Of a stretch of 64,000 nucleotides of DNA, positions 2,986 to 47,900 are shown one piece after another (the stretch's first letter is position 1; each line of letters begins with the position of its first letter). Under the pieces are notes generated by a model. That model was not told the origin of the DNA. It did not search any database and saw nothing but the letters and a program-made list of their open reading frames with translations. Source of the stretch: Candidatus Woesebacteria bacterium (lineage in GTDB: Bacteria; Patescibacteriota; Microgenomatia; UBA8517). The stretch spans positions 279,315 to 343,314 of the forward strand of contig CP055307.1 of NCBI GenBank assembly GCA_013374835.1, written 5' to 3'. Both the position numbers and the translations under genes were made by a program.

Positions 2986-3306
2986 TCAATTATGTTTTGA
3001 AATATAAAGATTGAAAGCTATGGTTGATCCAAAAAGCAGGAGAATATTGAGAAGGTTGCCTATGCCAAAATATCTAAGGATGAGTGCAAAAACTATGGAT
3101 AAGCTAAATAGAAAGCCTTTTTTGGAGTTTGTGAATATTACTGAAAGAGTGAAGAAAAGGGCGAGAAAAAGAACTAAAAAAAATACTGGGATGGCGCCAA
3201 AGTCTTTGGGGCTTGTAAAGACTATAATAACCGAGAGCAGTGTCCAGAGAATTATAATTATTAAAGAAAGTATTAAACCACTTGAGTGGCTTTTTTTTGA
3301 TTTCAT
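2986..3306 (-). CDS. Small polytopic membrane protein, hypothetical
   Basis: 106 aa with 3-4 hydrophobic helices. Co-directional with its neighbours. The overlapping plus-strand ORF 3011-3319 is highly basic, as expected for the antisense of a hydrophobic gene. Confidence 0.4.
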   Translation of the reverse strand: MKSKKSHSSGLILSLIIIILWTLLSVIIVFTSPKDFGAIPVFFLVLFLALFFTLSVIFTNSKKGFLFSLSIVFALILRYFGIGNLLNILLLFGSTIAFNLYISKHN

Positions 3307-3350: not shown

Positions 3351-4346
3351 ATGGATCCGATTATAATTCTGATATTAATTTTGGGCGGGATTTTGATTTT
3401 GGGATTGTGGGTAAATAAGAAACTTAATGATATTTTTGAAAAACAAAAGCCTTCTAACGAATTGATGGAAATAGTAAAGCTTCTTCAGGAGGGTTCTAAG
3501 GAGGATAGAAGGACACTACTTGAGTCTTTACAGAAAAATACTCAATCTCTTAACGAGAGGCTTGATAATGCTGCTAAGGTGATAGGAGAAGTTCAGAGAA
3601 ACATCGGTGAGTTTAGTGAGATCGGAAGAGGAATGAAGGAGCTTCAAGAATTTCTTCAGAGCCCGAAGCTTAGAGGAAATATTGGAGAGCAAGTTTTGAA
3701 GGATTTGATTGCCCAGATGTTTCCGAAGAGTAGTTTTTTTCTTCAGTACACTTTTAAATCCGGTGAAAAGGTTGATGCTGCCATAAAGACTGGTGCCGGT
3801 ATACTTCCTATTGATTCTAAATTTCCAATGGAAAATTTTCAGAAAATGTCTAAAGCCGAGAGAGAAGATGTAAATTTATATCGAAAAGCTTTTATAAGAG
3901 ATATCAAAAAGCACATAAAAGATATTAGTCGCAAGTATATATTGCCCGATGAAGGAACTATGGATTTTGCGCTTATGTATGTGCCTAGTGAAGCGGTTTA
4001 TTACGAGCTTGTGAGAGAGCAAGAGCTTTTAGAGATGGCACAAAGAGCGAGGGTTTATCCGGTCTCCCCTACTACTTTATATTCACATCTTCAAACTATT
4101 CTTTTGTCGTTTGAAGGAAAGAAAATAGAAACACAAGCTCGTGAGGTGTTTGGGATGCTTAGGGCTATAAGAAAGGATTATTCAAGAGTAGAAGAAAGTT
4201 TGACTACTCTTCAGAGGCATATAAATAATTCTTATAATATGATGGGTAATGTTTTGACTTATTTTAGTCATTTGGGGAGAAAAATAGACGCTACTAATAA
4301 TTTGAAGGAAGGTGGGGAAAAATTTCTTGACGAGCAGAAATCTTAA
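3351..4346 (+). CDS. rmuC: DNA recombination protein RmuC
   Basis: N-terminal transmembrane helix, coiled-coil region and the RmuC-type core LRGNIGEQVLKDLI...YILPDEGTMDFALMYVPSEAVYYE. Confidence 0.7.
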   Translation: MDPIIILILILGGILILGLWVNKKLNDIFEKQKPSNELMEIVKLLQEGSKEDRRTLLESLQKNTQSLNERLDNAAKVIGEVQRNIGEFSEIGRGMKELQEFLQSPKLRGNIGEQVLKDLIAQMFPKSSFFLQYTFKSGEKVDAAIKTGAGILPIDSKFPMENFQKMSKAEREDVNLYRKAFIRDIKKHIKDISRKYILPDEGTMDFALMYVPSEAVYYELVREQELLEMAQRARVYPVSPTTLYSHLQTILLSFEGKKIETQAREVFGMLRAIRKDYSRVEESLTTLQRHINNSYNMMGNVLTYFSHLGRKIDATNNLKEGGEKFLDEQKS

Positions 4347-7245
4347 TAAGCAGCAAATTGACGCGGTTGAACATAAAAAGGGTCCGCTTCTTATTATTGC
4401 GGGGGCAGGTACGGGTAAGACAACTGTAATAACAGAAAGAATTAAATATCTTATTTCTTCCGGTTTGGCGAAGCCTAATGAGATACTTGCTTTGAGTTTT
4501 ACCGAAAAGGCGTCTTTTGAGATGGTTGAGCGCGTTGATCAGGAGATGCCATACGGATATACCCAGATGTGGATATCTACTTTTCATTCTTTTTGTGACA
4601 AAGTTTTGAGGGCAGAAGCTTTGGAGGTTGGGCTTAATCCAAGATATAGATTGTTAACAGAAGCAGAGTCTATCGGGCTTTTGAGAGAAAATATTTTTGA
4701 GCTTGGTTTGTCTTATTTTAGACCACTTGGGAATCCAAACAAATTTTTGGACGCTATTTTGAAGCATTTTTCCAGACTTCAGGATGAGGATATAGCTCCG
4801 GGTGAATATATTGCCTGGGTAAATTCTAAAATAAAAACATTAAATTCTAAACCGGATAATGGAGAAAAGTTGGAGATTGAAAAATGGAGCGAACTTGCGC
4901 AGGCTTATAAAAAATTCGACGAGATAAAGATTCGTAAGGGTTTAATGGATTTTGGCGATTTGATAGTAAAGACTCTTGATCTTTTTAGAAAACGGCCAAA
5001 TATACTCTCGAGGTATAGGGAGCAGTTTAAGTATATACTTGTTGATGAGTTTCAGGATACTAATTTTGCTCAAAACGAGCTTGCAATTTTGCTTTCTGGG
5101 AATCAAGCTAATATTACTGTTTGTGGAGACGATGACCAAAGCATATATAGATTTAGGGGTGCTGCTGTTAGTAATATTTTTCAGTTTCGCAGAACTTTTC
5201 CTAAGGCTAAGGTTGTGGTTTTGACTAAAAATTACAGGTCAATACAGAAAATTTTGGATGCATCGTATAAATTGATTCAAAATAACAATCCGGATAGGCT
5301 CGAGGTTATTGAAGGGATCGATAAAAAGCTTTCCTGTGATTTAGAAAATGATTCCGGTGGAGTATTTTTTATACATGCGCAAAGGGGTGAAGAAGAGGCT
5401 GAGCTTGTGGCAAAAAAGGTTTTAGAACTTGTGGATTCGGAAAATTTTGATTTTAGAGATTTTGCAGTACTTGTCCGAGCAAATAATCAGGCTGAGTCTT
5501 TTGTTCGCGCCTTTTCAAGAGCAGGGGTACCCTATCAGTTTTTGGGGCCGGGGCGTCTTTTTAGACAGCCCGAGGTGGTAGATTTTATTTCGTATCTAAA
5601 GGTGCTTTATGATCCTACCGATTCAGTTTCTTTTTACAGGGTTCTTTCTTTGGATCATTTGAAGATTGATTCTAGAGATGTTTCGTTTATTGGTAGTTAT
5701 GCAAAGAAAAATAATATGTCTTTATATGAGGCTGCAGAGTGTGTTGGGGAGATAAATAATATAAGCGAACAATCCAAAGAAAAGGTTTTAAATTTGGTTA
5801 GAATTATTAAGCACCATTTGGGTTTGATAAAAAAAGAGACTGCGGGGCAGATATTGTATTATTTTTTGGAAGAAACCGGTATTATCAAAAATTTAGTTGA
5901 TCCATCCAGTGAAAAAGCGGAAAACGAAGCGAAGAATATATCTAAGTTTTTTGATAAATTAAAATCTTTTGAAACAGATTATGAAAGAGCCGATGTTTAT
6001 AGCGTTGTTGACTGGATAGATTTGTCCATGGAGCTTGGTGAGTCTCCTTTGGCTTCGACAGAAGATTGGGGTGAGAATAATGCTGTAAATATATTGACTG
6101 TGCATTCGAGTAAGGGACTTGAGTTTCCTGTTGTTTTTTTAGTAAATCTTGTTGAGCAGAGGTTTCCTTCGATTGAGAGGCGTGAGCTTATACCGATTCC
6201 CGATGAACTTATAAAAGAGACTCTGCCTTCGGGTGATTATCATCTTCAGGAGGAAAGAAGACTTTTTTATGTGGGTATGACAAGAGCTCAGAAGTATTTG
6301 TTTTTTAGTGCAGCCGACTATTATTCTGATGGTAAAAGGCAAAGGCGATTGTCTCCTTTTTTGTTTGAAGCTTTGGGCGAGGATATTTCTTTTTTGGAGC
6401 AAAAAAATGCAAAGCAGCTATCATTTCTTGATTATTCAGGAGAAAATAAGGCAGGTTTGTCTAGTTCCCGGGTAAAGCATGTGGTTTACTATCTTTCGTA
6501 TTCCCAGATAAGAACGTTTGAGATTTGTCCGCTTCATTATAAGCTTTCTTATGTTTTGAAGATTCCTACTTCTCCGTCACCTTCAATGAGTTTTGGTACA
6601 AGCGTTCATGAAACATTGAAAGATTTTTATAATCTAGTAAAGTCGGGCAGAAAGCCTGGTAAAAAGTTGCTTGAAGAGATTCTTAAGGATGATTGGATTA
6701 GAGCTGGATATAAAAGCAAAAGACATGAAAAAGAGGCTTTTGAAAAAGCGCTTATATTTTTGAGAGAGTATTATGATAAAGAGTTTGATTATGCAAATTT
6801 GCCCATATTAGTTGAACAGGATTTTTCTATCCCGCTTTATGAAGAAACGGAAAGCGGACGGGAGAAGGTAAGAATTGGTGGAAAGATGGATAGGGTTGAT
6901 TTATTAAGCAATGGGGGAATAGAGATTGTTGACTATAAAACAGGAGAAGAAATTCCGACCCAAAAGGAGGCTGATAAAGACCTCCAGCTTAGTATTTATG
7001 CTTTGGCTGCAACCTGTATAAATACAGAACCGTTTGGTAAGAATGTTGAGGATATCAAGTTATCGCTTTATTATTTTGAGGATCAGACAAAGATAGTTAC
7101 CAAAAGAAGTAAAGCTCAGCTTGAAGAGGCAAAAAAGAAAATATTTGAGGTTAAAAAAGAAATCGAAAACAGCGATTTTAGGTGTAGCGGAAGTTATATT
7201 TGTCGAAATTGTGAGTATTCTATGTTTTGTAAAACAGATTTTTGA
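4312..7245 (+). CDS. UvrD/PcrA-like superfamily 1 helicase fused to a C-terminal Cas4/AddB-like PD-(D/E)xK nuclease with an Fe-S Cys cluster
   Basis: Walker A GAGTGKTT, DEFQDTN (motif II), TVHSSKGLEFPVVFLV and YVGMTRAQ helicase motifs. After about 650 aa comes a nuclease module with an early Cys (EICPLHY), IVDYKTG (D/ExK), QLSIYALA (QxxxY) and a terminal cluster CSGSYICRNCEYSMFC. The start is uncertain: the ORF overlaps rmuC by 35 nt. Confidence 0.7.
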   Translation: MGKNFLTSRNLNKQQIDAVEHKKGPLLIIAGAGTGKTTVITERIKYLISSGLAKPNEILALSFTEKASFEMVERVDQEMPYGYTQMWISTFHSFCDKVLRAEALEVGLNPRYRLLTEAESIGLLRENIFELGLSYFRPLGNPNKFLDAILKHFSRLQDEDIAPGEYIAWVNSKIKTLNSKPDNGEKLEIEKWSELAQAYKKFDEIKIRKGLMDFGDLIVKTLDLFRKRPNILSRYREQFKYILVDEFQDTNFAQNELAILLSGNQANITVCGDDDQSIYRFRGAAVSNIFQFRRTFPKAKVVVLTKNYRSIQKILDASYKLIQNNNPDRLEVIEGIDKKLSCDLENDSGGVFFIHAQRGEEEAELVAKKVLELVDSENFDFRDFAVLVRANNQAESFVRAFSRAGVPYQFLGPGRLFRQPEVVDFISYLKVLYDPTDSVSFYRVLSLDHLKIDSRDVSFIGSYAKKNNMSLYEAAECVGEINNISEQSKEKVLNLVRIIKHHLGLIKKETAGQILYYFLEETGIIKNLVDPSSEKAENEAKNISKFFDKLKSFETDYERADVYSVVDWIDLSMELGESPLASTEDWGENNAVNILTVHSSKGLEFPVVFLVNLVEQRFPSIERRELIPIPDELIKETLPSGDYHLQEERRLFYVGMTRAQKYLFFSAADYYSDGKRQRRLSPFLFEALGEDISFLEQKNAKQLSFLDYSGENKAGLSSSRVKHVVYYLSYSQIRTFEICPLHYKLSYVLKIPTSPSPSMSFGTSVHETLKDFYNLVKSGRKPGKKLLEEILKDDWIRAGYKSKRHEKEAFEKALIFLREYYDKEFDYANLPILVEQDFSIPLYEETESGREKVRIGGKMDRVDLLSNGGIEIVDYKTGEEIPTQKEADKDLQLSIYALAATCINTEPFGKNVEDIKLSLYYFEDQTKIVTKRSKAQLEEAKKKIFEVKKEIENSDFRCSGSYICRNCEYSMFCKTDF

Positions 7246-8050
7246 AATAAGTTTTACTGAGGCTTTGCGGAAAAATAACTTCTTTGTCTCCGAAACTTTT
7301 TTTGAAATGGGTAAAGCCGAGCCAGCTTTTGTTTGGGTAACGGTTATCGTAGATGCCTTCGAAATCGAATGTTTTGGCTTTTTTCTCTTTTGCCCAGAGG
7401 ATTCCCTGCCAGACAATTTGGTACTGGATTAATGATTTTTTGGCTTTATTGCTTGTGAATGCCTGCCAGTAATAGGCTGTGGGGCCTGCTTTTAGAAAAA
7501 TAGCGCCTGCTGTAAAGTCCTGTGTAGTTAAAAAAAGGGAGTTTTTTTTAAACGATTTTTTAAGGTTTCTTAGATTTTTACGAGAGGGGACGTAGCGAGT
7601 GAAGGGTACAGAGCTTTTCCAGGCTTTATGAAATTCGTAAATTTTAGGAAGTAAGGAGAGGTTGGTAAGATGTGAGTTTTTTGTTTTGCGCAGGGCATAG
7701 CGGCAGTTTTTTTTAAAATTAGAATAGAGCTTTTCTTCCATTTGGGTGAGATCAATAGTTAAGGTTTTTGACGGCAGGTAAGGAGATTTTGTTTTACGAA
7801 ATCCGTAATCAGTAAGAAGGAAATTGTAATCGGTATTTAATGAGGGTTCGATGAGGATTTGGAAGGGGTGGTATTTGTCTTCGAGTGTTTTGATTAGTTT
7901 GGGGGTGATGACAGCAGGGCGCTGGATTTTTATAAAATGGCCGATGAGGGGGAACTTTTTGATGTAGGAGTATGTGCCTTCGGTTTTATCGACAGTCCAG
8001 CCTTCTAGGGACATGAAGCGGGCATAGGATGAGGATTGGCGAATATCCAT
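7220..8050 (-). CDS. FemAB-family peptidyltransferase (FemX-like), paralog 2
   Basis: C-terminal motif AYYWQAFTSN...QIVWQGILWAKEKKAKTFDFEGI matches the FemABX aminoacyl-transferase fold. 276 aa. Confidence 0.6.
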   Translation of the reverse strand: MDIRQSSSYARFMSLEGWTVDKTEGTYSYIKKFPLIGHFIKIQRPAVITPKLIKTLEDKYHPFQILIEPSLNTDYNFLLTDYGFRKTKSPYLPSKTLTIDLTQMEEKLYSNFKKNCRYALRKTKNSHLTNLSLLPKIYEFHKAWKSSVPFTRYVPSRKNLRNLKKSFKKNSLFLTTQDFTAGAIFLKAGPTAYYWQAFTSNKAKKSLIQYQIVWQGILWAKEKKAKTFDFEGIYDNRYPNKSWLGFTHFKKSFGDKEVIFPQSLSKTYFKNLFYKT

Positions 8051-8051
8051 A

Positions 8052-8996
8052 TTAGAATTTTGGCTTGATAAAGCGGGATTTGGTGCGCAGGAAACTCCAA
8101 CGGAGAAAATCTATAGTGCGGTAGGTGTAGTAGAGAGGTTTGTTAATGACTAGATCCCAAGTGCCGATGAATTCGACGACTTTGGGATTGTAGCCTTCTT
8201 TGAAACGGGTAAAACCCTTGCCTTCTTCCCTGCCCCAGAGATCGAATATTTTAAGGTTTCTTTTTTTTCCAAAGCGGATTGCCTCCCACATCATAAGGTT
8301 ATTGGCCATGACATTTTTATATTTATCGGAGGAAGCGCCGTAGGGATAATACAGGAATCCTTTATAAGCGAATAATATCCAAGCAGTTATTATTTTTTTT
8401 TGGTAAGTCGCGGTTAGAAGGAAGGCTAAAGGCTTGTGGTTTGTGGCTTGGGGTTTGGTGTGAAGGTGGTTCCACATGAGGCGGTGGTAACGCTCGGAGT
8501 GGGCGTAGAAGCCTTGCCTTTGAACGGTTTCGCGGGTTAGTTTAAGATAGTTTTCAAAAGCTTGATCTGAATTATTAAGTTGAACTTTTACGCCGCGTTT
8601 TTGGGCAAGACGGATATTGTATCTAGTTTTTGAGGAAAAGCTTTTTAAAAGTTCATCTTTGGTTTTTGTAAGGTCGATCCAGAATGAGGTTGAAGTAAAG
8701 AGGGTTTTGCCTGGCACGCAATTATTTTTTTTGAGGAGGTCTTCAAGTCCTTGCTCTTTGGGGGTAAAAGGCTCGATTTTGATAAAAATCAGATTGTTTT
8801 CTTTAGCAATTTTTTTAAGGTCGGTGAGCATTGGTTGAGTGGGTTTGGGGCCTCGGATAAACATACCTACTTTGTAGCTGGTAACCGGTAACTTGTGACA
8901 AGTAATATATCCATATTTGGTTTTGATAACTTCGTTGCCCCAAGTACGCCTAAAGTCCGCCCAAAATTTGGATTGAAGGGGGTGTTGCGGTAGCAT
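8052..8996 (-). CDS. FemAB-family peptidyltransferase (FemX-like), paralog 1
   Basis: ILFAYKGFLYYPYGASSDKYKNVMANNLMMWEAIRFGKKRNLKIFDLWG...FKEGY has the same pattern as the FemX C-terminal half. Its stop lies 1 nt from the start of paralog 2. Confidence 0.65.
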   Translation of the reverse strand: MLPQHPLQSKFWADFRRTWGNEVIKTKYGYITCHKLPVTSYKVGMFIRGPKPTQPMLTDLKKIAKENNLIFIKIEPFTPKEQGLEDLLKKNNCVPGKTLFTSTSFWIDLTKTKDELLKSFSSKTRYNIRLAQKRGVKVQLNNSDQAFENYLKLTRETVQRQGFYAHSERYHRLMWNHLHTKPQATNHKPLAFLLTATYQKKIITAWILFAYKGFLYYPYGASSDKYKNVMANNLMMWEAIRFGKKRNLKIFDLWGREEGKGFTRFKEGYNPKVVEFIGTWDLVINKPLYYTYRTIDFLRWSFLRTKSRFIKPKF

Positions 8997-9022: not shown

Positions 9023-10879
9023 TTAGAGTATGTCGTTAATATCGTTAAAGTCGTATCTATGGGAATAGCCAGAATTATCTGATGTGTTTAATAGGTTTTC
9101 TGGTATATCCGAAAGAAAACGACTTGGAGGATTGCTTGTTTTTTGTCCGAAATAGAGCCTTTGTTGAGCGTATGTGAGAAATAAGATTTCTTTTGCTCTT
9201 GTTATACCTACGTATGCGAGCCTTCTTTCCTCTTCCAATTGTGCTGGGTCAAAAAGCGACCTTGAGTGTGGGAAAAGGCCTTCTTCAAGACCAGTTATGA
9301 ATATAACGGGAAATTCAAGTCCTTTTGCTGCGTGTAGAGTCATGAGAGTGATTAATGATTGATGTTTTGTATCTGATGATTGATGGAGTGATTTGGAGGT
9401 CGAGAGTTGTTCGGCCTCAACTAAGGCTACGTTTTCCAAAAACTCATCGATGTTTTGAAATTCAGCCGCAACAGAACGCAGCTCCTTTATATTTTCCAGC
9501 CTAGCAAAATTTTCATCCGTTTCTTGGGCAAATTTTGAAAGATAATCAGTTTTGTTAAGTGTTTTGTCCATAATTTCCAGAGTAGTTAATTTTTGTGTAT
9601 CTAGACTTTTTTGGAGCAAGAGAAGGTTTTGTGTCCTTTTTTTCCCAGTTTTGAGTGCTCTTTTTAGGGACACAGGATCTTTAGGATTAATTATTAGTCT
9701 TAAATAAGAGATGATATCTTTTATTTCTGTTCTATCGTAGAATCGTATTCCTCCAATTAATCTATAAGGAATTCCATTTTGAAGAAGTGCTTCTTCTATT
9801 GTGCGGGACTGAGCATTGGTTCTATAAAGAATTGCAATGTCGCTGTAATTGTAGCCTGTGCGCGTGAGTTCGTTAATTTTGTCTACAATATAGCGGACTT
9901 CATCTTGTCCACTGTTTGCCCTAAAAAGTTTTATTTTTTCTCCTTTGGCGTTACGAGTCCAGAGTTTAAGAATTGGATGCGTGGTATTTTTGGATATTAC
10001 CGAGTTTGCGGCATTTAATATTGTTTGGGTGGAGCGGTAATTTTGTTCAAGATTTATTATTTGTATGTCGGGAAAATCTTTTATGAGATAGTTGATGTTT
10101 CTGTAATCTGCTCCTCTCCAACTATATATTGATTGCGAGGCATCACCTACTGCTGTGATATTTTTTCTGTTTCCAATTAGTAGTTTTGTAAGTTCATACT
10201 GAATTTTGTTTGTGTCTTGCCATTCGTCAATTAGAACTTGAGCTATTTTTTCCTGCCAAATATTTAGTACTTCTGGTTTTTCTTGAAACAGAGCTACTGT
10301 TTTGAGAAGTAAATCATCAAAATCTAACCCTCCTGCTTTTTTAAGATATTTTTCATATTCTACATATATTGTGAATACTTTTTCTTGTAATTCTCCATTT
10401 GCAATTTCAGCGTAACGAACCGGACTTAGCATTTGGTTTTTTGCGTCAGATATCTGTGATAGAAAGGTCTCGGGTTTGAAGTTGTCTTTGTTGAAATTGT
10501 GCTTTTCAAGGATGCTTTTAATAATTTCTTTTTGATCGGTTTGGTCGTAGATTATGAAATTTTTTGGAATATCGATTTTTTGACCGTCTGTTCTTAATAC
10601 TTTGGCGCAAAAGCTGTGAAATGTGCCCGAATATTTGGGTACATTTCCTGATAGTTTTGCTATGCGAAGTTTCATTTCATCTGATGCCTTATTTGTGAAT
10701 GTCAGAAGGAGGATCTGATCTGGGTTTATTTTTTTGTTTTTGATAAACCAAGCGGCTCTGTGTGTTAGGACCTTTGTCTTGCCGGAACCGGCACCTGCTA
10801 AAACAAGAAGCGCTTTTCCGTCGAAGGTAACTGCTTTGATTTGTTCCTTGTTAAGATTATTAATTAGCTTGTCTGTCAT
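9023..10879 (-). CDS. pcrA: ATP-dependent DNA helicase PcrA/UvrD
   Basis: N-terminus LNKEQIKAVTFDGKALLVLAGAGSGKTKVLTHR plus the later superfamily 1A motifs DEWQDTN, TLHAAKGLEFPVIFI and YVGITRAKE. 618 aa. Confidence 0.8.
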   Translation of the reverse strand: MTDKLINNLNKEQIKAVTFDGKALLVLAGAGSGKTKVLTHRAAWFIKNKKINPDQILLLTFTNKASDEMKLRIAKLSGNVPKYSGTFHSFCAKVLRTDGQKIDIPKNFIIYDQTDQKEIIKSILEKHNFNKDNFKPETFLSQISDAKNQMLSPVRYAEIANGELQEKVFTIYVEYEKYLKKAGGLDFDDLLLKTVALFQEKPEVLNIWQEKIAQVLIDEWQDTNKIQYELTKLLIGNRKNITAVGDASQSIYSWRGADYRNINYLIKDFPDIQIINLEQNYRSTQTILNAANSVISKNTTHPILKLWTRNAKGEKIKLFRANSGQDEVRYIVDKINELTRTGYNYSDIAILYRTNAQSRTIEEALLQNGIPYRLIGGIRFYDRTEIKDIISYLRLIINPKDPVSLKRALKTGKKRTQNLLLLQKSLDTQKLTTLEIMDKTLNKTDYLSKFAQETDENFARLENIKELRSVAAEFQNIDEFLENVALVEAEQLSTSKSLHQSSDTKHQSLITLMTLHAAKGLEFPVIFITGLEEGLFPHSRSLFDPAQLEEERRLAYVGITRAKEILFLTYAQQRLYFGQKTSNPPSRFLSDIPENLLNTSDNSGYSHRYDFNDINDIL

Positions 10880-12048: not shown

Positions 12049-13441
12049 ATTGATAGAGGTGTTCTTTGTGTATTAGTTTGAAGGAAGGATTTTTAAGATC
12101 GATGTAATCGATCAAGAAAATTTCTTTTTTTGAATAAAGATTAAGTGCAATTTGTTCCCATTCGTTTGGTGGTGCGTTAATTATTAAGACGTCTTGCCTT
12201 TTCCCTTCGACTTTTTGTAGATACCAAAGCGGTGTAGAATAACTCCACCAAGAGATAATTATCGAATTTTTCGGAAGTAGATCCATGGTTTTTTCGGCAA
12301 AAGCGCGTGCTGAGTTTGATCTTTCTTGATTTACTAAGGGAAAGTTTGTTTTTATGTTTTTTGCTGTTTGGACTGCGATTATAAGTGTAAAACTAAGGAG
12401 AACTATAAATTTGAATTTTTTAGAGAGACGTAATATTGTGTTGATTGATGAGGATATCCAGATAAGAATAACAACAAAAGAGGATGCGAAATATCTTTCT
12501 ATAACAGCATTTTGATATCTAAGACTGAAAAGGAGTGTACCGAGAAAAATAAATGATAGTGAAAAGTTTAGGATGCGATTTTCTTTTTTAAGAGAGACAA
12601 TTCCAATTAAAGCAAGAGGCAGAAAAACGATTGATATAAATCGTTTTAGTTGAATCGAATAAAATTGAATGCTTGAGAACACGCTTCCTCCGATCCATTT
12701 TCCGGAGTGGGGAGTAAAATCTCTGCCGAAGACGTGACGGCTAAAGGAGTCAAGACTATTTATCGGATAATTGGTAGTTAGGGGAGGTTTAAAGTAAGAA
12801 ATTATTGGTAGTAGTACATAGACGCTTAGACCAAGAAAGAATAAAAGAATTGATTTTATTATAAAAGGCCGGTTTTTTTTGACTTTTGTTGCCAGAATTA
12901 AAAAAAGAGGCAATAAGAAGAAAATTGATAATAAGTGATTTCCGAGCGATAGCCCTGTAATAAGAAAAATAGTTGGAAGAAAATTTATTTTATTTTGGAT
13001 TAATATTTTGGTGGATAGATATATAAAAAGAGATGTAAAAAGAAAGTGGAGTGCGTGAGGGTCTGCAGCTGTTGAGAGCGACCAAACGACGTAGGAAGTC
13101 ATTATTAAAAGGGGTGTGAGTATGGAGACGAATCTATTTTTGGTGATTGTGAATATTGAATTTGAAATAAAGTATAATCCTAGAGAGATAAAAATACTTG
13201 AGAGAAAATTGATTTGAAGCGCTACATTTTTTAGCGGGAGTAAAAAAAGAAACAGTTTTCCTAAAAGTATGTAAGTTGGGTAGCCTGTGGGGTGTGCGAT
13301 ATCGAGCGTGTAGAGGACGGTTTGGAATTCTGCCGTGTCCCAAAAGCCGACGTCTTTTAGTAAAGTCAAGGAATATAGTACCAAAGATGTGGGTATTAGA
13401 AGGACACCCAGCCAAATTTGTTTATCCACAGTACTCCCCAT
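12014..13441 (-). CDS. DUF2723/TMEM260-like GT-C fold glycosyltransferase
   Basis: Polytopic membrane protein. The N-terminal motif FWDTAEFQTVLYTLDIAHPTGYPTY matches the DUF2723 signature (WGDSGEF...HPPGYPL). Its start overlaps the upstream gene by 46 nt. Confidence 0.55.
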   Translation of the reverse strand: MGSTVDKQIWLGVLLIPTSLVLYSLTLLKDVGFWDTAEFQTVLYTLDIAHPTGYPTYILLGKLFLFLLPLKNVALQINFLSSIFISLGLYFISNSIFTITKNRFVSILTPLLIMTSYVVWSLSTAADPHALHFLFTSLFIYLSTKILIQNKINFLPTIFLITGLSLGNHLLSIFFLLPLFLILATKVKKNRPFIIKSILLFFLGLSVYVLLPIISYFKPPLTTNYPINSLDSFSRHVFGRDFTPHSGKWIGGSVFSSIQFYSIQLKRFISIVFLPLALIGIVSLKKENRILNFSLSFIFLGTLLFSLRYQNAVIERYFASSFVVILIWISSSINTILRLSKKFKFIVLLSFTLIIAVQTAKNIKTNFPLVNQERSNSARAFAEKTMDLLPKNSIIISWWSYSTPLWYLQKVEGKRQDVLIINAPPNEWEQIALNLYSKKEIFLIDYIDLKNPSFKLIHKEHLYQFTPLSYENSPQ

Positions 13442-14553
13442 GTGTTAACTATTACCGAAATTGTAAGAAGAGTCCAGTGGATGAAGTTTAGATTTGTTTT
13501 TTTAAGATAGATGATGATTAAAAAAATTAGTACCGGATAGAAGTCAACGGCAAAGCGGTATCCGAATTGACTGAATCCTACTGTTCCGTGCATAAATATA
13601 ACTGCTGTCATTAGAAAAATTACCAGCCAAGAAAAAGCTACCTCAGCTTTTTTGAGAGGCGCGAATAGAGAAAATATAAATGCAGGTGTTGTGATCCAGA
13701 TAGCAAGTCCAGTCCATGACGGCCATATGAATGGTGGTTTTTTTGAGAATTTGGGCAATTCCAGCAGAATTGTTTTGACATGTCTTGGTATGTAGCTTGG
13801 GTGGAAAAGCCCTTTGGAGTACCAGTGTTCATTTAAAACTCCGGGGATTAGTATATATGCTTTATCAAGAATTGATCCGAAGCGAATGAAATTATACCCG
13901 AAGTTTATTGATAGAAAAATACTTAGTATGATTAAAATTTTTGGCCAAGTACTAAATCTTTTTTTATTGGTAAGGTAAAGTATAAGAGGCAGAGTAAGTA
14001 TTGTTTGGAGTCGAGAAAGATAGGCTGCTCCGATGAAAAGTCCTATTGCAATTGGTCGTTTTTTTGAGGCTGTTTCGTAAATTGCAGCTGTTATAAAAAA
14101 ACACGCTGATATTTGTCCCAAATACCAAGCGGAGCCTGTAGCCGAGAGAAACCATATAATTGTTCCAAATCCTGTCAGTGTGGATACCCAAAGTGCTTTT
14201 TTTGTCGACTTCAATTTTTTTTGAGCTATTTGGTATGTTAAGGTAACTGTACCAGCTCCCAATAGATGTGCCAGAATTTGTTGTGGAAAGGCGGTACCGA
14301 AGAACAGGACGAAGGGTATAAGAAGGATAGAAGGCATTGGCGGATAGACAAGATAGTAGTGTCCCCTGCCGTTGGGTACGAGTTCATTTAGCCAGGGGGG
14401 CGCTGACTCGATCCAGTATTTTCCTTTTGTGAAACTTTCCGCGAAAAGTACAAAATAGTTATAGGGAGTGTTCCCTCCCGAGGTTAATAGATAGATTAAA
14501 AAAGTAAAAATAAAAATGATCTGCGGCAGTTTTGTTTTGGCCTGAAGACTCAT
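13396..14553 (-). CDS. GT-C fold glycosyltransferase, GT39/GT83 ArnT/PMT-like
   Basis: 385 aa with about 10 transmembrane helices and an N-terminal loop with YWIESAPPWLNE. Its start codon overlaps the receiver-gene stop (ATGA at 14550-14553). Confidence 0.5.
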   Translation of the reverse strand: MSLQAKTKLPQIIFIFTFLIYLLTSGGNTPYNYFVLFAESFTKGKYWIESAPPWLNELVPNGRGHYYLVYPPMPSILLIPFVLFFGTAFPQQILAHLLGAGTVTLTYQIAQKKLKSTKKALWVSTLTGFGTIIWFLSATGSAWYLGQISACFFITAAIYETASKKRPIAIGLFIGAAYLSRLQTILTLPLILYLTNKKRFSTWPKILIILSIFLSINFGYNFIRFGSILDKAYILIPGVLNEHWYSKGLFHPSYIPRHVKTILLELPKFSKKPPFIWPSWTGLAIWITTPAFIFSLFAPLKKAEVAFSWLVIFLMTAVIFMHGTVGFSQFGYRFAVDFYPVLIFLIIIYLKKTNLNFIHWTLLTISVIVNTWGVLWINKFGWVSF

Positions 14554-40359: not shown

Positions 40360-42546
40360 ATGGATAGCAAAAAACAAGAATATTATTGGTCGCTTGCAAT
40401 TGAACCAGGGTGGATTCAAGCTGCAATTTGGACAATTGAAGAAAGGCGGGCAAAAGTAATGATTATTAGTTCTTCTGTTGCCTGGGGTGATGATACCGAG
40501 CTTATTGAGGCATGTAATTCAGCGCTTTCGTCCGCTTCACAGAATTATCCAGAAGAATTGATTGAGCCAAGTAAGACCGTTTTTGGTGTGGCTCCTTTTT
40601 GGGTTTCTGATGGGCAGATTAAAAAAGAGTATTTGGAGAAGATAAAAGAGGTATGTTCGAAACTTTCTTTGGAGCCATCGGGTTTTGTGGTTTTACCGGA
40701 GGCAATTTCTCATGCGATTAAGCTTGATGAGGGAACACCTTTTTCTGGGATTGTAATTGGTTATGGCAAGGAAATGCTTGATGTAACTTTGTTTAAGCTT
40801 GGAAATATTGCAGGTACTGTAAATATCGGAAGAAGCGTTTCTTTTGCAGATGATGTTATCGAGGGGCTTGCAAGGTTTTATACAGGCGAGAATTTTCCTT
40901 CAAGAATAATTATTTACAATGGAAAAGAAGCCGAGCTTGAGGAAGCAAGGCAGCACATTATTGATGTAGATTGGTTTGAAAAGAGTGAGGGTAAAGTGAA
41001 ATTTTTACATACTCCTAAGATTGAGATATTTTCTCCAGAGAAAAAATTAACAGCGGTTTGTCTTGCTGGAGCATCTGAATTCGGAGAGATAGAAGGCCTT
41101 GTGAAAGCGGAAAATGAAGAGAAAGAGAATTTACAAGTCGATGAGGATGTGGAAGACAGTAAAGAGATGAATTTTTCTCAAATAAACTCAGTTGATCCAC
41201 GGGATGTAGGATTTGTTTTTGGTGGTGATGTATCGAAAATAGAAAAAATAACTGCCGAGTCTGAAGAAGCGGGTGTGGAGCAGGAGTATATGTCTGAAAA
41301 GAAAAATGGTTTTTTAAAAAGAGTTGCAGGTTTTAACCATTTGCTGAGGTTTAAAAAACCTGTTTTAAGATTCCGAAGTTTTCCTAGGAAGGTGCTGCCT
41401 TTTGAAGGTTTGGGTAGGATTTTATTTATTGTATTGGTTTTGAGTCTTATAGGATTTTTTACGGCTTGGTGGTTTTTGCCGAAGGCTAGTGTTGTTATTT
41501 TTGTTTCTCCAAAGCTTCTTTCAGAGAGTGTCGGCGTTACTTTTGAGAAAGGTTTGGCTCAGGCTAATTATGATAAGTTTTTGTTGCCTGCAGAGACTGT
41601 AATTGTTGAGGTTAGTGGAAAAAAGACAAAAAATGCAAGCGGGACTAAGACGGTTGGCGATAAGGCAAAGGGTGTTGTAAAAGTTAGAAATGGAACCTCA
41701 TCCACTATCAAGCTTTCTGAGGGGACTGTTTTGATTGGCCCTGGAGAATTAAAATTTAGTTTAGATGAATCGACGTCGGTTTCTGCTGCCGAGAGCCCCT
41801 CGTCGCCCGGGACTGAGGATGTAAATGTTACTGCAGAAGATATTGGTGCAGAATACAATCTTGCAAAAGATGAATCTTTTTCGGTTGGCAATTATCCCAA
41901 AAGCGAAGTTGATGCTGTGGCAAAAGAAGATTTCAGCGGTGGCTCGAGTAAAGACATTGTGGCGGTATCACAAGACGATATTGATAAGTTGAAAGAGGAT
42001 CTTATAGATGAGCTTAAAAAACAGGGTATGGATAAAATTAGTGGACAGATAGGGAAAGATAAGATTTTTATTGAAGAAGATGGGGCTTTTGAGTACGAAA
42101 TTGTGTCAGAGGAGTATAGTCACAAGGTGGGAGAGGAGAGTGGAAGCGTGGAGTTATTGATGACTTTGAAACTTGAAGGACTGGTAATTTCAAAGAGCGC
42201 TATGAATGAGCTCTCAAAAAGACGGCTTGAGTCGCAAGTGCCTGAAGGATATACTTTGAAAGAGGAACAGCTTAATATAAGTTATTCTTTTCAAGGCTCT
42301 GGGTCTTCTTATTGGGATTTTGATGTTACTATTAAAGCAAATCTTCTTCCGCGAGTTGAACCTGATGAAATAAAGAAGAATATAGCTGGTAAAAGTTTTG
42401 ATAGAGTTAATGAGTATTTAGAGACGATACCTGGGTTTACGCGTTCCGAGATTAGTGTGAAGTACAAATTTCCTTGGATTTTTGGAGTTATCCCAAGGAT
42501 GCATAAGAATATAAATATAGAGACAATAGCTGATAGAAATGTTTAA
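40360..42546 (+). CDS. FtsA/PilM-like actin-fold ATPase domain fused to a transmembrane helix and a large extracytoplasmic domain
   Basis: The N-terminal ~330 aa show the actin-like pattern: WSLAIEPGWIQAAIWTI..., VLPEAISHAIKL...SGIVIGYGKEMLDVTLFKLGNIAGTVNIGRS. A transmembrane helix follows (LGRILFIVLVLSLIGFFTAWWFL), then a ~350-aa domain of unknown type. Confidence 0.4.
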   Translation: MDSKKQEYYWSLAIEPGWIQAAIWTIEERRAKVMIISSSVAWGDDTELIEACNSALSSASQNYPEELIEPSKTVFGVAPFWVSDGQIKKEYLEKIKEVCSKLSLEPSGFVVLPEAISHAIKLDEGTPFSGIVIGYGKEMLDVTLFKLGNIAGTVNIGRSVSFADDVIEGLARFYTGENFPSRIIIYNGKEAELEEARQHIIDVDWFEKSEGKVKFLHTPKIEIFSPEKKLTAVCLAGASEFGEIEGLVKAENEEKENLQVDEDVEDSKEMNFSQINSVDPRDVGFVFGGDVSKIEKITAESEEAGVEQEYMSEKKNGFLKRVAGFNHLLRFKKPVLRFRSFPRKVLPFEGLGRILFIVLVLSLIGFFTAWWFLPKASVVIFVSPKLLSESVGVTFEKGLAQANYDKFLLPAETVIVEVSGKKTKNASGTKTVGDKAKGVVKVRNGTSSTIKLSEGTVLIGPGELKFSLDESTSVSAAESPSSPGTEDVNVTAEDIGAEYNLAKDESFSVGNYPKSEVDAVAKEDFSGGSSKDIVAVSQDDIDKLKEDLIDELKKQGMDKISGQIGKDKIFIEEDGAFEYEIVSEEYSHKVGEESGSVELLMTLKLEGLVISKSAMNELSKRRLESQVPEGYTLKEEQLNISYSFQGSGSSYWDFDVTIKANLLPRVEPDEIKKNIAGKSFDRVNEYLETIPGFTRSEISVKYKFPWIFGVIPRMHKNINIETIADRNV

Positions 42547-44935: not shown

Positions 44936-47900
44936 ATGGCGGATAACAATAAGCGGCGTAATTTTGGTAAAGAGGAGAAAAACCTGCCAGAGCTTGATTT
45001 ATCTCTTATTCAGAGAGAAAGTTGGCAGTGGTTTTTGTCGGAGGGAATTGCTTCTGAAATTTCTCAGATAAGTCCTATTGATGATTTTACCGGCAAGAAT
45101 TGGCAGCTTGTTTTGGGCGAGCATACTCTTGAGGAGCCTGAAATTAATCCAAAGAGTGCTATTGAAAAAGGTTTAACATATTCGGCTCCGTTTAAGATTC
45201 AGACAAGTCTGATTAATAAAAATACCGGTGAGAGAATTGACCAAGAGGTGTTTTTGGGCAATCTTCCCCAAATGACGGCTTCCGGGACGTTTATTATAAA
45301 CGGTATAGAAAGAGCCGTCATTAATCAGCTTGTAAGATCATCCGGTGTTTATTTTTCGGGAGAACAGGATACAACTTCCGGGCGGATGCTTTATATGGCT
45401 GAAGTAAGGCCTCTTCGTGGCAGTTGGCTTGAGTTTGAAATAAATAAAAACGATGTTATATGGGCAAGAATTGATAAAAGAAGAAAAATAAATGCGGCTA
45501 CAATTCTTCGTGCACTTGGTTATGAAAATAATAAGGATATTTTGAATTTATTTACGGATGTAGATACAGACAAAGAACATCAGTATATAAAAACAACTTT
45601 GGCAAAAGATTTATCTTCGACTCGTGAAGAAGCGCTTTTGGAAATTTATAGGAAGTTAAGGCCAGGGGAGCCGGCTGTCTTGGAAAATGCCGAGGGTTTG
45701 TTTAATAGTTTGTTTTTTGATCACAGAAGGTATGACTTGGGTCGTGTGGGGAGATATAAGATAAACAAGAAGCTTGGGCAGGATGTTCCGAACGATGAAC
45801 AAAATTGGGTTTTGATAAAGGAGGACTTTGTAAACACGATATCTTATCTGATTGGTCTTCAAAACGGTGTGGGTGAAATTGACGATATTGATCATCTTGC
45901 GAATAGAAGATTAAGAAGAGTCGGTGAGCTTGTAGCTACTCATGCATTTAGGGTGGGGCTTTTGAGACTCGAAAGATCCGTTAAGGAGAAGATGAGCCTT
46001 ATCTCACCAGATGATAAACCTCAGCCTCAGAATCTTATTAATGCAAGGCCTTTGATTGCTTCAATTAACGAGTTTTTTAGGTCAAATCAGCTTTCGACAA
46101 TACTTGATGATACAAACCCTTTAAGCGAGATTGATAATCTAAGGCGCGTAACGGTTTTGGGTCCTGGAGGTATAAATCGAGAAAGGGCTTCGTTTTCAAT
46201 ACGTGATATTAATTCTTCCCAGTATGGAAGGATTGATCCTGTAAGAAGTCCTGAGGGTCCGAATATTGGACTTGTTACTTATCTTGCTTTATATGCTCAT
46301 ATAAATGAGTATGGTTTTATTGAATCTCCTTATAGAAAAGTAGAAAAGGTAAAGGTAAAAGGAAAAACAGAGGTAAGGGTAACTGATGAGACGGTTTATT
46401 TAACGGCCGATGATGAAGAGAATTATCATATTACACACTCGGATGTGACGCTTGATAAGCGCGGATTTATCCAAGAAAAAAGACTTGCTTATAGATATAA
46501 AGGAGCTTTTATGGAGGGACCGTCTAGTTTGGTTGATTTAATTGATTTGACTCCCAGGCAGGTGTTTGGCGTTTCTGCGGCCTTAATTCCATTTTTGCCA
46601 AATGACCATGGGAATAGAGCTCTTATGGGTAGCAATATGCAGTGTCAGGCTGTTCCTTTGATCAAACCTTCTTCGCCAGTTATTGGCACAGGTATGGAGG
46701 AGATTGTGGCTGGAGCGATGGGTAGAGTAATAAGAGCTTTTTATCCTGGAACAGTAACGTATGTTGATGCCGAGCGGATTGATGTGGAGCTTGAAAAGAA
46801 AATTGAGAGTAATGGAAATTATGGAGCTAATATTGAGATAAGCGACGGTGGTAAAAAGATAACTTATTTTTTGACTAAGTTTAAGAGGACTTCGCAGTCA
46901 ACGTCTTATAATCAGAAGGCAGTAGTAAATGTTGGAGCTAAGGTTAAAAAAGGAGATCTTTTAGCAGACGGACCTTCTTGTGAATTAGGAGAGCTTGCTT
47001 TGGGGCAGAATTTGGTTATAGCTTATGCAAGTTTTGAAGGATATGGATTTGAGGATGCAATTTTGGTTTCCAGCAGACTTGTAGAGGATGATCTTTTGAC
47101 ATCGGTTCATATTAAGGAATATCAAGCAGATGTTGTAGAAACTAAATTGGGTCCTGAGGAGTTGACTCGGGATATTCCAAACGTTGCCGAGCAGGAGCTC
47201 GCTAATCTTGCCGAGGACGGGATTGTTGTGATAGGTGCTGAAGTGGGGCCGAATGATATTCTGGTTGGAAAAATTGCACCTAAAGGCGAAACGGAATTAA
47301 CCTCGGAAGAGAGGCTTCTAAGAGCTATTTTTGGAGAAAAGGCTCGTGAAGTTAGGGATACTTCTTTGAGAGTTCCACACGGAGAAGGTGGTATAGTTGT
47401 TGATGTGAATATTTTAGATAAAGATAAGGGTGACGAGTTGGGTCCAGGAGTGATAAAAAGCGTGATCGTAAAAGTTGCGCAGCTTAGAAAGGTGATGGTT
47501 GGAGATAAATTAGCCGGTAGGCATGGAAATAAAGGTGTGATTGCACGTATTCTTCCTGAGGAGGATATGCCATATTTGGAAGACGGAACTCCGGTTGACA
47601 TAATTATTTCTCCATTATCTGTGTTGGCTCGTATGAATTTGGGACAGCTTCTTGAAGTTCATCTTGGATGGGCTTTGAGTAAAAAGGGCGAGAAAGGTGC
47701 AATTCCTGTTTTTGATCGTATATCTGAGGATGTAATTACAAAGGAGCTTAAATCAGCGGGGCTTCCGGTTGACGGTAAAGCAAAGCTTTTTGATGGTAGG
47801 ACGGGTGAAGCTTTTGAGGAGAATACAGTGGTTGGTGTGGGTTATATCCTTAAACTTAAGCATATGATTGAGGATAAAACCCATGCTCGTTCGACTGGGC

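Follow-up and report, generated by a model that had tools for sequence, protein, structure and literature searches.

A single-chain UvrD-type helicase with a Cas4/AddB-type nuclease domain, linked to rmuC in Patescibacteria

We analysed a 64,000-nt stretch of the genome of a Candidatus Woesebacteria bacterium (GenBank assembly GCA_013374835.1, contig CP055307.1, positions 279,315 to 343,314 of the forward strand; hereafter the window, to which all coordinates refer), and in particular its gene at 4312-7245, the product of which reads by its sequence as a single-chain UvrD-type helicase joined to a Cas4/AddB-type iron-sulfur (Fe-S) nuclease. An earlier sequence-only reading of the window had treated this architecture as unusual, which does not hold, as the architecture was described already in 2017 (PMC5704561), and the gene is the Patescibacteria (candidate phyla radiation, CPR), rmuC-linked form of a known fusion. 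On balance we lean, by a modest degree, to the view that the Patescibacteria helicase-nuclease acts on DNA ends or stalled forks in the course of recombinational repair.

The open reading frame (ORF) lies on the forward strand and encodes 977 amino acids (aa) when it is read from GTG 4312, a start which overlaps the upstream rmuC gene (3351..4346) by 35 nt. An equally plausible start is TTG 4327, with AAGGTGG upstream of it, which would give a protein of 972 aa and reduce the rmuC overlap to 20 nt. Public gene calls divide in the same way, the identical protein P0001 (100% identity) being called at 972 aa from the TTG start and P0002 (94% identity) at 977 aa. No terminator between rmuC and the helicase-nuclease gene was found in a promoter/terminator scan, the yield of which was at chance level (18 found against 12 +/- 3.7 expected); two promoter-like sites inside the 3′ end of rmuC (4200-4238) come from the same scan, which overall is not above chance. 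The parts of the gene are the following.

4312..7245, + strand: helicase-nuclease ORF, 977 aa (GTG 4312) or 972 aa (TTG 4327), from the P0001 and P0002 gene calls
4342..6315, + strand: superfamily 1A (SF1A) UvrD/PcrA-type helicase core, aa 11-668, from Pfam PF00580 and PF13361 and a PDB sequence search
4402-4425, + strand: Walker A motif GAGTGKTT of the helicase core, aa 31-38
5044-5064, + strand: DEFQDTN of the helicase core, aa 245-251
Motif III of the helicase core, + strand: DDDQSIYRFRGA
Motif V of the helicase core, + strand, aa 596-609: TVHSSKGLEFPVVF
Motif VI of the helicase core, + strand, aa 653-660: YVGMTRAQ
6316..6492, + strand: predicted flexible tether between helicase and nuclease, aa 669-727, from the predicted local distance difference test (pLDDT) values of an AlphaFold2 (AF2) model
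6415-6435, + strand: conserved tether motif QLSFLDY, aa 702-708, candidate for beta-clamp binding
6493..7233, + strand: Cas4/AddB/AdnA-type PD-(D/E)xK nuclease domain, aa 728-974, from PF12705, alignment A2, AF2 and Foldseek
6526-6528, + strand: N-terminal putative cluster cysteine C739 (EICPLHY) of the nuclease domain
H766 and E835, + strand: nuclease domain residues, invariant in A2
6889-6891, + strand: catalytic D860 of the nuclease domain
6931-6939, + strand: catalytic D874-Y-K876 (IVDYKTG) of the nuclease domain
6985-6999, + strand: Q892-x3-Y896 (QLSIYALA) of the nuclease domain
7201-7230, + strand: putative cluster C964-x2-C967-x5-C973 at the C-terminus of the nuclease domain

All motifs quoted in the sequence-only reading are present in the translation of this ORF, and its call of a helicase followed by a nuclease agrees with the order of the Pfam domains, the profiles for PF12705, Cas4 and UvrD_C all scoring above cutoff in the protein.

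In the helicase half, Pfam UvrD-helicase (PF00580) matches aa 11-297 (5e-74, 249.8 bits against a cutoff of 23) and UvrD_C (PF13361) matches aa 302-668 (1.3e-56, 193 bits against a cutoff of 25.6). The SF1A motifs I, Ia, II, III, IV, V and VI are intact, which places the protein among the SF1A UvrD/REP helicases, and all of them are invariant across 54 full-length homologues (alignment A1). Among the invariant positions is the aromatic residue of motif III (YRFRGA), the counterpart of the ratchet pawl described for AdnB, AddA and RecB (PMC13000450). When aa 10-669 were searched against PDB sequences, the best match was PcrA (1pjr, 3e-92), and UvrD1, UvrD and Rep were found as well. The helicase half thus has its best sequence match in the PcrA/UvrD/Rep group, with all SF1A motifs in common, and the helicase-nuclease differs from this group by the extra ~300 aa of tether and nuclease domain. 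As an orthologue of any of these helicases the protein was rejected, since it stays below the NCBIfam cutoffs for pcrA (470 bits against 911), rep (405 against 951) and uvrD (378-386 against 965-1144). A separate PcrA-type gene, presumed to be the housekeeping one, lies 2 kb away at 9023-10879 and its product shares only 30% identity with the helicase half of the fusion, and the earlier statement that the gene at 4312-7245 is not the housekeeping PcrA is confirmed.

In some orthologues an insertion of ~190-360 aa is found near aa 276-278, at helicase motif III. These are P0049, P0096, P0100, P0110, P0122, P0136 and P0183, together with the gene of locus L024 (a 1316-aa ORF); Intein_splicing and Hint Pfam matches were obtained for P0049, P0096, P0100 and P0110, and P0122, P0136 and P0183 served to map the insertion point. 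The neighbouring PcrA paralogue is also intein-bearing in one relative (992 aa; L087:12656-15634).

The nuclease half is matched by Pfam PDDEXK_1 (PF12705) over aa 728-974 (2.4e-37, 129.6 bits against a cutoff of 22) and by Cas_Cas4 over aa 850-974 (26 bits against a cutoff of 22.7). Its terminal cysteine motif, CSGSYICRNCEYSMFC, contains C958, C964, C967 and C973, and these four and C739 are 100% conserved in 116 close homologues, where no other cysteine is conserved save C95 of the helicase core (99%). In alignment A2, which holds 20 nuclease domains chosen for diversity (35-52% identity to the query), the invariant columns are C739, P740, Y743, G762, H766, E835, F838, G857, D860, R861, D874, Y875, K876, T877, Q892, L893, Y896, C964, C967 and C973, and from the alignment these read as the RecB/Cas4 nuclease motifs and the ligands of a C...CX2CX5C cluster. 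Because the cysteines and catalytic residues are invariant both in the 116 close homologues and in the 20 sequences of A2, chance can be ruled out as their source. The nuclease domain is predicted to bind a [4Fe-4S] cluster.

Structure prediction points the same way. The AF2 model of the nuclease domain (pLDDT 92.1; predicted template modelling score, pTM, 0.86) is predicted to adopt a RecB/Cas4-type PD-(D/E)xK fold, and in a Foldseek search against the PDB it matched ACE1 best (E 1e-10, template modelling score, TM, 0.66-0.69), then AdnA of mycobacterial AdnAB (3.6e-10, TM 0.65), AddB (6e-7) and type I-C Cas4 (1e-5), with Exo5, Dna2, RecE and the RecB-family domain of RecC at lower ranks; the Foldseek probability was 1.00 for ACE1, AdnA, AddB, Cas4, Dna2 and Exo5. 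The A2 profile, searched against PDB sequences, found AdnA first (3.8e-13), followed by the AdnB nuclease (2.6e-11), ACE1 (2.4e-8) and AddB (2.4e-6). The assignment of the C-terminal region to Cas4/AddB-type Fe-S PD-(D/E)xK nucleases in the sequence-only reading, for which the fold had been named as the point to check, is therefore supported by PF12705, the invariant residues, the predicted fold and the Foldseek matches.

Two further observations concern this domain. The fifth cysteine, C958 (nt 7183-7185), lies six residues ahead of CX2CX5C, is 100% conserved in the close Microgenomates clade and is absent from more distant fusions; a role as alternative cluster ligand or as redox-sensitive residue is conceivable. 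Of the 150 nearest representatives of this domain, 17 lack a helicase (they include P0121, P0126, P0131, P0165, P0167, P0151, P0157, P0164, P0198 and P0200) and are for the most part arrays of 2 to 5 tandem full-length Fe-S PDDEXK_1 copies, for example 1297 aa with 5 copies or about 550 aa with 2 copies; in P0231 and P0238 a single nuclease domain is split by a ~640-aa insertion.

According to the full-length AF2 model, a flexible tether of about 55 residues joins the motor to the nuclease. This model (pLDDT 73.6, pTM 0.37) begins at TTG 4327, i.e. 5 residues later than window numbering, and was used for tether flexibility alone, not for interdomain geometry or fold search; its pLDDT falls below 50 for model residues 665-674 and 684-714, which in window numbering is roughly aa 670-719. 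Within the tether, QLSFLDY is found in all of the close homologues with both landmarks (112 of 112). In 54 of 131 distant fusions there is a relaxed form, Q[LM]x[LIFM][LFIVM][DESNG], compared with 1.3 expected from shuffled tethers, and many of the distant fusions without it have near-variants, e.g. QLSLTE or QIPLFEW; one representative reads QLSLFDL at this place. The consensus of beta-clamp-binding peptides is QL[SD]LF or QLxLxL, and from its resemblance to this consensus QLSFLDY might serve to attach the enzyme to the beta sliding clamp.

Three neighbours of the gene are needed for its genomic context.

3351..4346, + strand: rmuC-like gene, 331 aa, Pfam PF02646 (3.3e-51), overlapping the start of the helicase-nuclease gene
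7220-8050 and 8052-8996, - strand: two FemAB-family genes (Pfam), convergent with the helicase-nuclease gene; conserved downstream neighbours, context only
9023..10879, - strand: PcrA/UvrD-type helicase without nuclease, 618 aa, TIGR01073 699 bits; conserved neighbour

With the nuclease-domain alignment as query, one genome per GTDB species was scanned and at least 509 relatives were confirmed. Locus statistics refer to the best 80 of these at least 509 loci, for which ORFs were called and then searched with the neighbours from the window. All of these best 80 loci among GTDB species representatives read as Patescibacteria; about 30 are generically titled, and those named are Woese-, Gottesman-, Levy-, Roizman- and Shapirobacteria and Saccharimonadales, as well as Parcu-, Nomura- and Peregrinibacteria. 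Many contigs of GTDB-representative metagenome-assembled genomes with the locus (L009, L010, L016, L017, L021 and others, some of them 600-840 kb and near-complete) are labelled 'uncultured Gammaproteobacteria bacterium', which evidently is a placeholder or a wrong taxonomic label. A protein search returned thousands of relatives, the best 120 of which, at about 60% identity, are all 950-1000 aa long and share this architecture; the named ones belong to Woesebacteria, Microgenomates or Patescibacteria, and the annotations go no further than "ATP-dependent helicase" or "PcrA".

The adjacency to rmuC that had been noted in the window is conserved well beyond this genome, as RmuC is encoded on the same strand and at most 3.5 kb upstream in 49 of the 63 loci with sufficient upstream sequence. 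It directly adjoins the helicase-nuclease in 14 of those 49, and the remaining RmuC-linked loci have small unrelated insertions (a cupredoxin-like protein, an FAD/NAD oxidoreductase). Moreover, RmuC is kept in 19 of the 25 loci that have no other neighbour in common with the window, and hence the rmuC link outlasts general synteny. In the RmuC of the window a hydrophobic helix at the N-terminus and a coiled-coil region accompany the RmuC PD-(D/E)xK-type nuclease domain, and IDSKFP / MYVPSE forms a conserved core in its orthologues from related loci (n=60). In Woese- and Gottesmanbacteria the conserved block runs methionyl-tRNA synthetase (MetRS) / YerC-like / orf106 / RmuC / helicase-nuclease / FemAB / FemAB / PcrA / LytR; one Woesebacteria relative keeps the downstream block without RmuC. 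The 106-aa ORF of this block (2986-3306, - strand) has no Pfam or NCBIfam match, and its conserved place between rmuC and the YerC/TrpR-like gene, shared by more than 20 related loci, marks it as a real gene.

Elsewhere the window encodes DnaK, polynucleotide phosphorylase, RNase J, FtsK, alanyl-tRNA synthetase, MurJ, RpoBC and elongation factor G (EF-G). The fusion diverges at a rate similar to that of its neighbours, with a mean pairwise identity of 0.55 for the fusion, 0.575 for PcrA and 0.54 for RmuC, and its pairwise distances correlate with those of PcrA (r = 0.64) and RmuC (r = 0.56). The correlation with the MetRS neighbour is about 0 and was set aside because the MetRS query also matches other class I synthetases. 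The gene context is one of housekeeping, and the gene is chromosomal and probably vertically inherited. Relatives of the nuclease domain in plasmid and phage databases reach at most about 30% identity, and plasmid-borne fusions 24-26% in this domain. Two remote plasmid-borne UvrD-nuclease fusions that we inspected (1015-1065 aa) both stand in defence-like settings, in contrast to the window; one of them, from Methanomethylovorans (L089:5664-8711), lies near csa3 and a helicase/HSP90-like gene pair.

For the processing of ends or stalled forks we propose the following course. The UvrD/PcrA-type SF1A motor would bind the 3′-ended strand, translocate 3′-to-5′ and unwind the duplex with ATP, while the tether would place the C-terminal [4Fe-4S] PD-(D/E)xK nuclease at the fork, where the nuclease would thread and cut the displaced 5′-ended strand and so leave a 3′ single-stranded tail for RecA. 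One chain would then hold what AddA/AdnB supply as the active motor and AddB/AdnA as the 5′-strand nuclease, without a Chi-scanning subunit or a dedicated 3′-strand nuclease. QLSFLDY may keep the enzyme on the beta sliding clamp, and RmuC, as a second PD-(D/E)xK nuclease, would probably act in the same pathway.

Several points weigh against this course. With a pTM of 0.37, the full-length model does not fix how motor and nuclease lie relative to each other, and a single chain might just as well pass the 3′ strand on which it tracks to its nuclease, as RecB and AddA do. The clamp reading is a lead taken solely from likeness to a consensus, and a QLSFLDY-type motif is missing in a few Woesebacteria sublineages. 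Distant members of the same architecture are found in defence settings (beside Type III restriction-modification (RM) or Dcm-Vsr genes, PMC5704561; beside BREX), and anti-phage systems, too, make use of RmuC domains (Shield, PMC10270631; the match to a DRT-associated model). If canonical AddAB, RecBCD, AdnAB or RecJ were present in the same genomes, a primary role in resection would be less compelling; a literature search found nothing usable on the AddAB/RecBCD content of CPR, Patescibacteria, Saccharibacteria or Parcubacteria.

Most of the proposed chemistry would be retained if the enzyme served replication-coupled strand excision or flap/fork processing, being tethered to the clamp, unwinding from nicks, gaps or reversed forks and degrading the displaced 5′ strand, much as in UvrD-plus-RecJ excision during mismatch or gap repair or in Dna2-type 5′-flap removal. 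Such a role would suit a helicase of the UvrD/PcrA clade rather than the AddA/RecB clade, a nuclease fold which also matches the 5′-flap/5′-end nucleases Dna2 and Exo5, a QLSFLDY-type motif placed in a disordered tether as a clamp-binding peptide would be, and an enzyme with neither Chi-scanning nor a second subunit. We nevertheless regard it as rather unlikely, since the clamp motif is a candidate and is missing in some lineages, the RmuC linkage points to recombination, ZomB, of similar architecture, degrades duplex DNA from ends in an ATP-dependent manner (PMC9453066), and the neighbourhood has no replication gene. The protein might also be half of a canonical AddAB/AdnAB-type heterodimer, the partner of which is encoded elsewhere in the genome; its nuclease domain is most like AdnA and AddB, and AddA, AddB, AdnB and RecB models or structures give significant partial matches. 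However, the AddA, AddB and RecB models score far below cutoff, the pairing of an active motor with an Fe-S nuclease occurs in neither AddA/AdnB nor AddB/AdnA, no second UvrD/PDDEXK_1 gene except the nuclease-less PcrA lies within 10 kb in the ~80 loci, and no AddB-like protein (long, with a degenerate helicase) is among the 150 nearest nuclease-domain representatives, where the long proteins are either fusions with inteins or nuclease domains in tandem. We consider a heterodimer very improbable.

A defence role, in which RmuC and the helicase-nuclease form a module that unwinds and shreds invading linear DNA of phages or plasmids, appears distinctly unlikely to us, although a number of observations are in its favour. 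Type III RM or Dcm-Vsr genes are the usual neighbours of the published UvrD-Cas4 clade (PMC5704561), a distant homologue on a Hymenobacter plasmid (NZ_CP095057.1, L090:5628-8825) directly adjoins a BREX-1 operon (brxL, pglZ, pglX), the top structural match, ACE1, is an Argonaute-associated nuclease, RmuC-domain proteins protect Pseudomonas from phage (PMC10270631), the RmuC of the window matches a DRT-associated RmuC model (6.5e-12), and in one relative toxin-antitoxin pairs are inserted near the gene. Against this, the same housekeeping neighbourhood is kept across Microgenomates classes with a divergence rate like that of the adjacent PcrA, there is no methyltransferase, RM, BREX, Argonaute or cas gene and no CRISPR array near the gene, the relatives on plasmids and phages are as remote as stated above, and the Shield system has been reported from Pseudomonas only and has other partner genes (PMC10270631). 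The PADLOC matches are generic UvrD/GajB matches; the GajB models score below the values for the PcrA paralogue (e.g. PDLC00132, 255 against 360 bits), and such weaker scores imply a shared helicase fold and not membership of a defence family.

Candidate defence families were rejected on similar grounds. Among the best 25 of the 64 matched PADLOC families there are GajB and DRT-helicase models only, and none for Nhi. In Nhi the nuclease is N-terminal to the helicase, and the domain order is reversed here. The Nhi-like immunity protein that the sequence-only reading had offered as an alternative is thus not upheld, given the generic PADLOC matches, the housekeeping context and the absence of close relatives from plasmids and phages. 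For Gabija, no GajA-like neighbour accompanies the generic GajB match. Shield, in which the RmuC-domain protein ShdA gives phage defence together with other, ShdB-E-type partners (PMC10270631), was not found, the RmuC of the window having matched only the DRT-associated RmuC model in PADLOC.

Patescibacteria make up a large share of bacterial diversity and combine tiny genomes with a poorly understood DNA-repair repertoire. If the helicase-nuclease does resect double-strand breaks or forks, it would be the simplest bacterial resection machine known, with one motor, one 5′-strand nuclease and no Chi reader, and a convenient minimal model for motor-nuclease coupling. A bolder proposal, which we put forward tentatively and judge rather unlikely, is that RmuC and the helicase-nuclease form an ancestral two-gene, two-nuclease, clamp-tethered end/fork-resection module that is the sole resection machinery of Patescibacteria, replacing AddAB/RecBCD/AdnAB, and that RmuC here has its first defined biochemical partner. 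The function of RmuC has stayed obscure since 2000, and the conserved linkage of its gene offers a testable lead. The gains are incremental, as earlier papers cover the architecture, its likely chemistry and, with ZomB, a biochemical precedent; what most deserves to be followed up is the linkage to rmuC and the motif in the tether.

Some other features of the window and of related loci were recorded. At 44936-51964 (+ strand) rpoB and rpoC are fused into one 2342-aa ORF with all RpoB (Rpb2 domains 1-7, aa 65-1078) and RpoC (Rpb1 domains 1-5, aa 1376-2264) Pfam domains, followed directly by rpsL/rpsG-sized ORFs and then by EF-G and a 411-aa ORF; rpoB-rpoC fusions occur in Helicobacter and Wolbachia. 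The GC skew, (G-C)/(G+C), is +0.17 to +0.41 in every 2-kb bin of window 1-64000, and its cumulative rise is monotonic, with no switch that would mark an origin or terminus within these limits; the skew is strongly positive though the genes of the first 20 kb use both strands, and the asymmetry is unusually strong. Among the housekeeping genes there are also a 728-aa ORF without Pfam or NCBIfam match (40360-42546, + strand) and a 385-aa ORF with only a weak match to a glycosyltransferase subfamily (13396-14553, - strand). In one relative (L087:1-1238) an RVT_1 reverse transcriptase gene stands beside a bAvd/23S_rRNA_IVP-family gene, ~7 kb upstream of rmuC, and this pair is the signature of a diversity-generating retroelement.

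In comparison with known systems, ACE1, an enzyme of the Cas4 family, gives the best structural matches and, like CRISPR Cas4, has the same four-cysteine cluster arrangement; these are stand-alone proteins of ~200-270 aa with Argonaute or Cas1-Cas2 as partners, and no such genes lie near the helicase-nuclease. A CRISPR-associated Cas4 was rejected (TIGR00372, 34.9 bits against 65), there being no CRISPR-like array in the 64-kb window and no cas genes among the neighbours. Dna2 and the bacterial Dna2-like Bad are likewise single chains with an Fe-S PD-(D/E)xK nuclease and an SF1 helicase and share the logic of 5′-strand processing, but their nuclease is N-terminal and their helicase is SF1B (5′-3′), whereas in the window protein the nuclease is C-terminal and the helicase SF1A.

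In AdnAB, the AdnA nuclease bears an Fe-S cluster at the Y-junction and cuts the displaced 5′ strand, and the AdnB motor tracks 3′-to-5′ on the other strand (PMC13000450). AdnAB and Bacillus AddAB, which resect double-strand breaks, share with the window protein a UvrD-like motor and PD-(D/E)xK nucleases, the window nuclease being nearest to AdnA by profile and to AdnA and AddB structurally. They have two subunits, an active and a degenerate motor and two nucleases, with the Fe-S nuclease on the subunit of the inactive motor, whereas the window protein is one chain with an active PcrA-clade motor and an Fe-S nuclease, without a partner gene, a 3′-strand nuclease or a Chi-recognition domain. 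No addB, adnA, recC or recD partner was found in the operon, where the neighbours are RmuC and FemAB, and the AddAB/RecBCD equivalogs were rejected (addA_Gpos 182 against 708, addA_alphas 150 against 861, addB_alphas 34 against 487, addB_Gpos 28 against 904, recB 152 against 696). The suggestion in the sequence-only reading of a one-polypeptide AddAB/AdnAB-like enzyme is therefore plausible as a likeness, in view of the AdnA/AddB-nearest nuclease and the precedent of ZomB, but it fails as membership, as the models score below cutoff, there is no partner subunit, and the motor carries an Fe-S nuclease of the AddB/AdnA type and not of the AddA/AdnB type.

The closest likenesses are in single-chain fusions. 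UvrD-Cas4 is the largest branch of the pfam12705 Cas4-like family and is monophyletic (Hudaiberdiev et al. 2017, PMC5704561); where its members are not beside Type III RM or Dcm-Vsr genes, they stand alone in non-conserved contexts, and a role analogous to the RecB/AddB nucleases was predicted for them (PMC5704561). In part 1 of the tree of that study the Cas4-UvrD leaves are non-CPR only, and the supplementary files that were searched do not mention RmuC. The order is the same as in the window protein, an SF1 UvrD-like 3′-5′ helicase followed by a Cas4-like Fe-S PD-(D/E)xK nuclease in a single chain. The published clade is mostly from Proteobacteria and Firmicutes and was read as defence, whereas the form studied here, likened to it by architecture, is Patescibacteria-wide, housekeeping and rmuC-linked, with no Mod/Res, Dcm or Vsr among the neighbours in the window or in the relatives' loci. 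ZomB, from ICESp23FST81 of S. pneumoniae, is an ATP-dependent double-stranded DNA nuclease in which a UvrD-like helicase precedes two Cas4-like Fe-S domains (2022, PMC9453066). Compared by architecture, both proteins have a UvrD-like helicase followed by a Cas4-like Fe-S nuclease in one chain; ZomB has two Cas4-like domains, belongs to a conjugative element and is tied to pneumolysin regulation, whereas the window protein has one nuclease domain and is encoded by a core chromosomal gene.

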